Of a stretch of DNA of 20,870 nt, positions 18,001-18,252 are shown piece by piece. The position numbers and the translations under genes were made by a program. The stretch covers positions 1 through 20,870 of the IMG/VR virus record IMGVR_UViG_2896595138_000005; one strand, given 5' to 3'. Position 1 is the stretch's first letter, and every line of letters begins with the position of its first letter. Origin of the DNA: a virus (Duplodnaviria; Heunggongvirae; Uroviricota; Caudoviricetes). The notes beneath the pieces are model-generated. The model ran no database searches and had not been told where the DNA came from. It saw nothing but the letters and a program-made list of their open reading frames with translations.

Positions 18001-18210
18001 ATGTTTCTTGCTGATCGCGCCAGCCGTTCTGCACATCAACATTTTCATTACTGAGCAGCATTTTAACTTTGCTGACCTGCACGCCGTTGTCGATCCAGCG
18101 TTTGATCTCGCGGATCCGGTCAATATCGGCATCGTTGAACAGCCGATGACCGCCGTCTGTCCGTTGCGGTTTCAGCAATCCGTAACGCCTCTGCCACGCG
18201 CGTAACGTGA
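18001..18210 (-). pseudogene. mlrA: fragment of a MerR-family regulator gene, probably mlrA (yehV)
   Basis: MerR-type segment [41 protein letters not shown]; 3' side cut by the IS at 18000; no in-frame ATG, upstream codons differ from the recalled MlrA N-terminus. Confidence 0.5.
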
Positions 18211-18252
18211 CAGGGATTAAAGGTAAACCAATTGATTTTGCAAGTTTTTATT
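18211..18252. other. candidate prophage attachment junction
   Basis: Lies between the 3' end of int and the point where resemblance to mlrA is lost; core sequence not determined. Confidence 0.3.

Follow-up and report, generated by a model that had tools for sequence, protein, structure and literature searches.

A fragment of mlrA cut by a prophage junction and by IS600 in a putative Shigella boydii-type chromosome

MlrA is a MerR-like activator of csgD. In this work the window, by which we mean the whole stretch of 20,870 nucleotides that was analysed, was found to carry a 214-nucleotide piece of the mlrA gene lying between an IS600 element and the core of a phage attachment site, next to a truncated integrase gene. 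It is very probable that this piece is a non-functional mlrA remnant which was produced by the insertion of a prophage, by one insertion of IS600 and by recombination among IS600 and ISSfl3 copies. The features on which this reading is based are given below.

1-862, plus strand: IS600 copy 1, of which the right 862 bases lie in the window, the full element beginning 401 bases upstream; flanks AAT / AAG.
863-16736, unstranded: scrambled lambdoid prophage remnant, lying to the left of the mlrA-cutting IS600 as a non-native neighbour.
863-10043, unstranded: phage early region with N, cI, cro, cII, O, a DnaB-like helicase, NinB, Dam/NinE and a HigB/HigA-like pair.
10044-16736, unstranded: inverted late block with terL', terS, KilA-N, Rz, lysozyme, holin, tRNA-Thr/Asn, Q, NinH, RusA, YbcO, Ant and a 5'-cut P22AR.
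16737-18000, plus strand: IS600 copy 2 (IS3 family, 1264 bp), with orfA at 16801-17103 and orfB at 17139-17957; termini TGAGGTAGCC... and ...ACACCTCA.
18001-18214, minus strand: mlrA fragment, nucleotides 49-262 of 732, 100% identical to K-12, holding a partial MerR helix-turn-helix (HTH) only.
18195-18215, unstranded: att core of 21 bp (CACGCGCGTAACGTGACAGGG on the plus strand), the prophage/mlrA crossover region.
18216-18252, unstranded: phage attP arm of 37 bp between the core and the integrase stop codon; phage DNA, not mlrA.
18253-19279, minus strand: 3' 1027 nucleotides of a tyrosine integrase gene of about 1287, of the yehV-integrating Stx-phage type, with the 5' 260 or so nucleotides missing.
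19280-20870, minus strand: ISSfl3 (IS66 family), extending about 1.16 kb beyond the window to a total of about 2746 bp; flanks TTTCCGAA / GGTGATCC.

On the minus strand the fragment corresponds to codons P17-T87 of K-12 mlrA, with all 214 nucleotides identical (window position = 18263 - mlrA nucleotide). In a three-way alignment of K-12 mlrA, an EIEC-like lysogen and the window, every column from mlrA nucleotide 49 to 263 was invariant, the last of these being base 18000, which doubles as the terminal A of the IS600 end, with codon L88 completed by the insertion element. An earlier note on this DNA had called the sequence a MerR-family gene, probably mlrA, and had proposed an alignment with an uninterrupted copy; the mismatch-free alignment with the K-12 gene over nucleotides 49-263 bears out that assignment. 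The 72-codon translation (P17-L88) scored 155.6 bits against the NCBIfam MlrA equivalog NF011617, covering profile positions 17-88 of 243, whereas the runner-up among the MerR-family models, CarH, reached 53.8 bits. The curated cut-off of NF011617 is 417 bits and complete K-12 MlrA scores 550.4 bits, and with a score below that cut-off the sequence is a gene fragment and not a member protein. In Pfam the distal part of the HTH was recognized, the matches to MerR_1 and MerR beginning no earlier than profile positions 16 and 14, respectively, and there was no match in the fragment to MlrA_helical or MlrA_C, both of which are found in full MlrA. An 801-base query containing the fragment was matched in 5426 of 5426 complete E. 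coli genomes, and among the best hits listed the matched stretch carries the annotation mlrA and integrase.

The 5' end of the gene had been proposed to be lost at a junction beside int, and this proved correct. Identity to K-12 mlrA ends at 18214/18215, inside the 21-bp att core, after which the phage arm and int follow, and the 21-bp "direct repeat due to prophage insertion" annotated in phage YYZ-2008 aligns to window positions 18195-18215. Positions 18001-18194 are unambiguous host mlrA and 18195-18215 are core common to phage and host, so the earlier attribution of the entire interval 18001-18252 to mlrA holds for 18001-18214 but not for the last 37 bases (18216-18252), which belong to the phage arm. 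Homology to the 1287-nucleotide int gene spans only the part from its stop codon (18253) to 19279, where it is cut by ISSfl3, and the truncated gene retains the catalytic Phage_integrase domain. Over their full length, the int fragment and arm (18215-19279) were 93.4-94.6% identical to the integrase regions of VT1-Sakai, YYZ-2008, BP-4795, JLK-2012 and two Stx2a phages. Past 18214/18215 the window does not differ from the int-proximal junction in lysogens such as FDAARGOS_943, which have mlrA, a tyrosine integrase gene and xis one after another, and O157:H7 strain TR01 was colinear through the mlrA-int junction at 98.4%. With the same core and a same-lineage integrase directly adjacent, the junction is of the attL type formed by Stx phages that integrate in yehV/mlrA, and the YYZ-2008 core, the TR01 colinearity and the integrase identities all agree with the earlier suggestion that this is the site used by Stx-type prophages. 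A prophage was thus integrated at a known att core in mlrA. The 315-aa ORF of the truncated integrase had no exact match in the protein collection, whose own gene call begins at an internal Met.

The insertion sequence ending at 18000, at which the 3' end of the fragment had been said to be lost, does remove mlrA from nucleotide 263 on and was identified as IS600. Positions 16737-18000 were 99.4-99.9% identical to annotated IS600 over 1264 bp, matched the IS3 transposase model and have the length (about 1264 bp), the TG...CA termini and the two reading frames, orfA and orfB, of that element, whose right end (...ACACCTCA) abuts the mlrA fragment. The local flanks, AGC and ATG, form no 3-bp target duplication, and because they mismatch while the matching CAT sits at a distant IS600, copy 2 is considered to be a recombinant copy. 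Its counterpart at the start of the window (CP026845.1 1149080-1150343) truncates ycaM at about nucleotide 1034 of 1431, joining ycaM' to the early-left region of the phage, and its flanks, AAT and AAG, again hold no 3-bp target duplication. ISSfl3, which was 99.4-99.6% identical to annotated copies, matched the IS66 transposase model and has a GTAAGCG terminus at 19280, truncates int and fuses int' to a 3'-truncated ycaI; the ISSfl3 flanks (TTTCCGAA and GGTGATCC) do not show the 8-bp duplication of this family, in line with a recombinant copy. The lack of duplications at all three elements is the signature of copies that have recombined with other copies. An IS600 inside ycaI of the same genome, which served as an internal positive control, has a clean 3-bp duplication, CTT/AAG, with CTT on either side of the element.

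If mlrA had been hit by a single IS600, the missing half would be predicted to begin with the reverse-complemented left end of IS600, followed by CAT (the duplicated nucleotides 260-262) and mlrA nucleotides 263-732. This construct encodes a 173-aa ORF with 20 residues at the N-terminus joined to MlrA 88-243, and the exact sequence is present in the protein collection as "MerR family transcriptional regulator [Shigella boydii]" and "mlrA domain protein [Shigella boydii 5216-82]". The ORF maps to CP026845.1 1217503-1218024 (plus strand), directly after an IS600 oriented opposite to the window copy, and downstream of it are the native neighbours yohO, yehW, yehX, yehY, osmF, bglX, dld and pbpG. 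On the other side of the distant IS600 are an ipaH-like gene, ybhB, bioABFCD and uvrB. The distant flank reads CAT followed by TACTGACTTACC, as predicted, confirming the CAT duplication (record position 1217552), and the rejoined pieces rebuild mlrA nucleotides 49-732 with 2 of 684 nucleotides differing from K-12. Between the window fragment, at record positions 1167481-1167694 (minus strand), and this other half lie 50,071 bp, and the two have opposite orientations. The rest of the genome had been suggested as the place to search for the missing 3' portion, and it is indeed there, disconnected from the window fragment; the MlrA_helical and MlrA_C domains reside on this separate 173-aa piece. 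Each half of the one gene has thus been traced. Since both junctions carry the CAT (nucleotides 260-262) duplication, one IS600 was inserted in mlrA, and the halves were later separated by IS600 recombination. The piece was located by exact look-up of the predicted chimera and falls in the main MlrA cluster. When protein databases were searched with full-length MlrA and with its residues 89-243, the C-terminal fragment did not appear among the cluster representatives. The ipaH-like gene immediately beside the distant IS600 (CP026845.1 about 1214290-1216053) encodes 587 aa with LRR_TTSS and NEL E3-ligase domains.

The whole window was 100% identical to GenBank CP026845.1 (4.93 Mb), with the window start at record position 1149481; positions 7954-20870 were matched directly, and a 36.6-kb composite of two CP026845.1 loci contains the entire window. 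The chromosome appears to be of the Shigella boydii type, a label taken from protein names and a neighbouring accession. A 74-aa chimeric ORF at 17954-18178 had an exact match on one contig, CP026845.1. Mapped to K-12, the order on the plus strand of the window is ycaO-focA-pflBA-ycaK-ycaN-ycaM', IS600 copy 1, 15.9 kb of phage DNA, IS600 copy 2, mlrA', int', ISSfl3 and 'ycaI-ihfB-rpsA-cmk, so that mlrA'-int' is a 1.28-kb orphan lying near minute 20 with phage debris on one side and ycaI on the other, and the IS copies around it join the non-syntenic DNA of ycaM, phage, mlrA, int and ycaI. In K-12, mlrA is flanked by btsSR and yohO-yehWXY, and the window fragment is far from both. The earlier proposal that the host lacks a curli/biofilm regulator at this locus is therefore right in that mlrA is broken here, but the fragment no longer lies at the mlrA locus. 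A query spanning the IS600/mlrA junction was matched at 80% coverage or more in 0 of 5426 complete E. coli genomes, and the int/ISSfl3 junction was likewise absent from these. Neither junction had a match in a collection of species-representative genomes, as would be expected if Shigella is represented there only by an E. coli genome.

From these data three kinds of event can be recognized. A lambdoid prophage with an integrase of the Stx1/Stx2-phage type entered the att core near mlrA codons 17-23, which cut the promoter and the opening codons off from the remainder of mlrA. IS600 inserted once in the int-proximal part of mlrA, duplicating nucleotides 260-262 (CAT). Recombination among IS600 and ISSfl3 copies then moved the pieces: ISSfl3 cut the integrase and fused int' to ycaI and the IS600 in mlrA swapped partners, leaving nucleotides 49-262 beside phage debris and nucleotides 260-732, inverted and 50 kb off, still attached to yohO-yehWXY-osmF. 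The relocation of the pieces by IS recombination is seen directly in its outcome, and the order and number of the steps are what we infer from it.

A simpler course, in which one inversion between two inverted IS600 copies split the mlrA halves and nothing further took place at IS600, would account for halves that are opposite in orientation and about 50 kb apart, each still joined to the IS600 end expected of one original insertion. It is nonetheless unlikely, as the flanks on the sides away from mlrA should then carry the 3-bp duplication of the partner. The far flank of the distant IS600 is AAG (in IS orientation) and the left flank of the window IS600 is AGC; therefore one clean inversion is insufficient, at least one further exchange is needed, and a single clean inversion was rejected. 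A third state was also found in other S. boydii, indicating that this IS600 recombined or was deleted more than once in the clade: in AFGE01000025.1 (strain 5216-82) and PSSR01000001.1, ycaI' is followed by the first 61 nucleotides of ISSfl3, IS600 and mlrA from nucleotide 260 onward. The layout of these two contigs implies an ancestor with the order ycaI'-ISSfl3-int'-mlrA(49-262)-IS600-mlrA(260-732)-yohO, from which the lineage of AFGE01000025.1 and PSSR01000001.1 would have deleted int'/mlrA(49-262) next to IS600, the IS600 of the CP026845.1 lineage having swapped partners instead.

After these insertions and exchanges, mlrA is here in at least three pieces, and the 214-nucleotide piece is predicted to be dead. 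Judged from its sequence, it is without a promoter, a start codon, the first 16 HTH residues and the helical and C-terminal domains, and no MlrA could be made from it. Excision of the prophage would also not be expected to repair mlrA, since the integrase gene has been truncated and the partner att site now lies elsewhere. [quoted passage not shown] For Shigella, the expansion of IS elements, IS-mediated rearrangement and IS-mediated loss of the csg operon have been documented, csg being lost in each species (PMC7373316); mlrA is absent from the main text of that report, and the mlrA::IS600 allele of CP026845.1 was not found in the literature searched. It might be proposed that the triple disruption of mlrA is a selected, lineage-defining silencing of curli and csgD in the S. 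boydii clade, or that an expressed 173-aa IS600-MlrA(88-243) chimera interferes with the partners of MlrA, and we regard this as highly unlikely. Hardly likely too is that the remnants are expressed with a residual or new function, for example as the 74-aa HTH chimera (17954-18178) or the 173-aa IS600-MlrA C-terminal chimera. Both ORFs are called by gene finders, and the 173-aa ORF starts at an ATG in the left end of IS600 and retains two intact MlrA domains, but the HTH piece is without its first 16 residues and the dimerisation region, and int'/mlrA 49-262 is missing at the corresponding junction of other S. boydii, which argues against selection.

Since both flanks of the fragment are multi-copy IS elements, the classic place for mis-joins, and CP026845.1 has frameshifts when compared with sister genomes, the layout could in principle be an assembly artefact with mis-joined IS600 and ISSfl3 repeats. 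We consider this very improbable, because in JARKNR010000001.1, an independent assembly, IS600-mlrA'-int'-ISSfl3 is present at 99.87% over 3001 bp with an identical fragment and the same outer neighbours, and the reciprocal IS600/mlrA 3' junction occurs on 5 contigs from different assemblies; as the second assembly has both junctions of the fragment, misassembly was rejected. With regard to the quality of the record, tnpC of ISSfl3 is split into ORFs 20214-20870 and 19312-20490 by a run of four C at 20454, where JARKNR010000001.1 has five C and an intact 519-aa TnpC, and cI, bioA, osmF and bglX of CP026845.1 are split in comparison with sister assemblies. These small indels are possibly homopolymer sequencing errors and leave the junctions unaffected. 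JARKNR010000001.1 has an additional IS600 within the phage lysozyme gene, at about window 12975-12979, pointing to ongoing IS600 activity in the clade.

The phage segment is bracketed by two directly oriented IS600 copies (1-862 and 16737-18000), an arrangement that could bring to mind a composite transposon which carried the 15.9 kb of phage DNA into mlrA. The chance of this is minimal: the outer flank of copy 1 is ycaM (AAT) and not mlrA, no repeat of the ATG/CAT beside copy 2 is found there, and the true CAT partner is at record position 1217552, next to a third, inverted IS600, so that such an insertion is refuted by the IS600 flanks (AAT/AAG and AGC/ATG) and the distant CAT. Within the phage segment the P22AR-type antirepressor gene is split, its first 81 nucleotides lying at 9963-10043 (plus strand) and the rest, from nucleotide 121, inverted at 16738-15995 (minus strand), adjoining IS600 copy 2. 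The block 10044-16736, from terL' to P22AR', is inverted with respect to S. dysenteriae Sd197 and CP026836.1 with a loss of about 39 bp, and no IS was found at the 10043/10044 inversion junction. A look-up of the Ant-like protein showed a related phage remnant in S. dysenteriae Sd197 and 1617, where it occupies another locus. A Gp49/HigB-like toxin gene (9499-9918) and an HTH_3 antitoxin-like gene (9201-9509), overlapping on the minus strand, lie in the nin region of the phage, and the pair is also present in the Sd197 remnant. In Stx phages the tRNAs and stxAB are positioned between Q and the holin. The late region of the window has tRNA-Thr(TGT) and tRNA-Asn(GTT) at 13328-13483 (minus strand) between the Q antiterminator and holin genes. 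No stx gene was found in the window, the gap of 454 bp between Q (13744-14367) and holin (12996-13289) containing no stx-sized ORF, and the late region is thus without the stxAB between Q and the lysis genes that marks a Stx-converting prophage.

An origin of the fragment from a different MerR-family gene, for which it might be said that nothing beyond the conserved MerR HTH region is left and that several MerR-family models match it weakly, has a practically negligible probability and is refuted by 100% nucleotide identity to K-12 mlrA over 214-215 nucleotides, by 155.6 bits for the MlrA equivalog against at most 53.8 for any other family, by the mlrA annotation of the stretch in the best E. 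coli hits listed, and by the MlrA_helical and MlrA_C domains of the other half and its yohO-yehW neighbours.

The disrupted mlrA described here resembles that of STEC (O157:H7; VT1-Sakai/Sp15, YYZ-2008, BP-4795) in having the same att core with an insertion point near the 5' end of mlrA, and it shares with the Stx1 phages of STEC the same integrase type (93-95% at the nucleotide level), with int likewise directly beside the 3' part of mlrA. Unlike in STEC, the prophage here is neither intact nor excisable, the 5' 260 nucleotides of int having been lost to ISSfl3 and neither xis nor stx being found in the window, and the 3' part of mlrA was also cut by IS600 and relocated. The EIEC-like FDAARGOS_943/944, O121 201805972, VL40 and VL7S7 (mlrA-int-xis-IS600) were 100% identical to the window across mlrA from nucleotide 49 onward, the att region and the 3' 250 nucleotides of int; they have the same prophage type at the same site, but their mlrA is uninterrupted to the stop codon and next to yohO-yehW. 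In FDAARGOS_943 (3532-4233 of the locus) a 233-aa RefSeq "MlrA" starts in the phage arm, at an in-frame ATT equivalent to window position 18232, and such "intact" calls mask the disruption by the prophage. Like the pseudogenes that accompany the expansion of IS1, IS2, IS4, IS600 and IS911 in Shigella (PMC7373316), mlrA was interrupted by IS600 with a 3-bp duplication, and the pattern of IS rearrangement given in the same report, with inversion or deletion between homologous copies, IS elements without local duplications and broken synteny, is found here too. The loss of csg in Shigella (PMC7373316) concerns the same pathway, although here it is the upstream regulator and not the structural operon that is affected. 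A 208-aa [quoted passage not shown], found on 47 contigs, is one of the other shortened MlrA forms, and these suggest independent mlrA lesions in other Shigella lineages.

Both halves of the gene are already in public databases under mlrA-related names. For annotation, positions 18001-18214 should carry the label of mlrA pseudogene fragment, and CP026845.1 1217503-1218024, now called a "MerR family regulator", should be marked as the other half. The case also offers a worked example of how the pairing of target-site duplications can reunite gene halves that were parted by IS recombination. The fragment is ordinary genome decay for Shigella and belongs to known biology, namely the disruption of mlrA by prophages and decay driven by IS elements. 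A lineage of the S. boydii type with such a gene would be unable to produce MlrA, in keeping with the loss of curli and biofilm functions that is general in Shigella.
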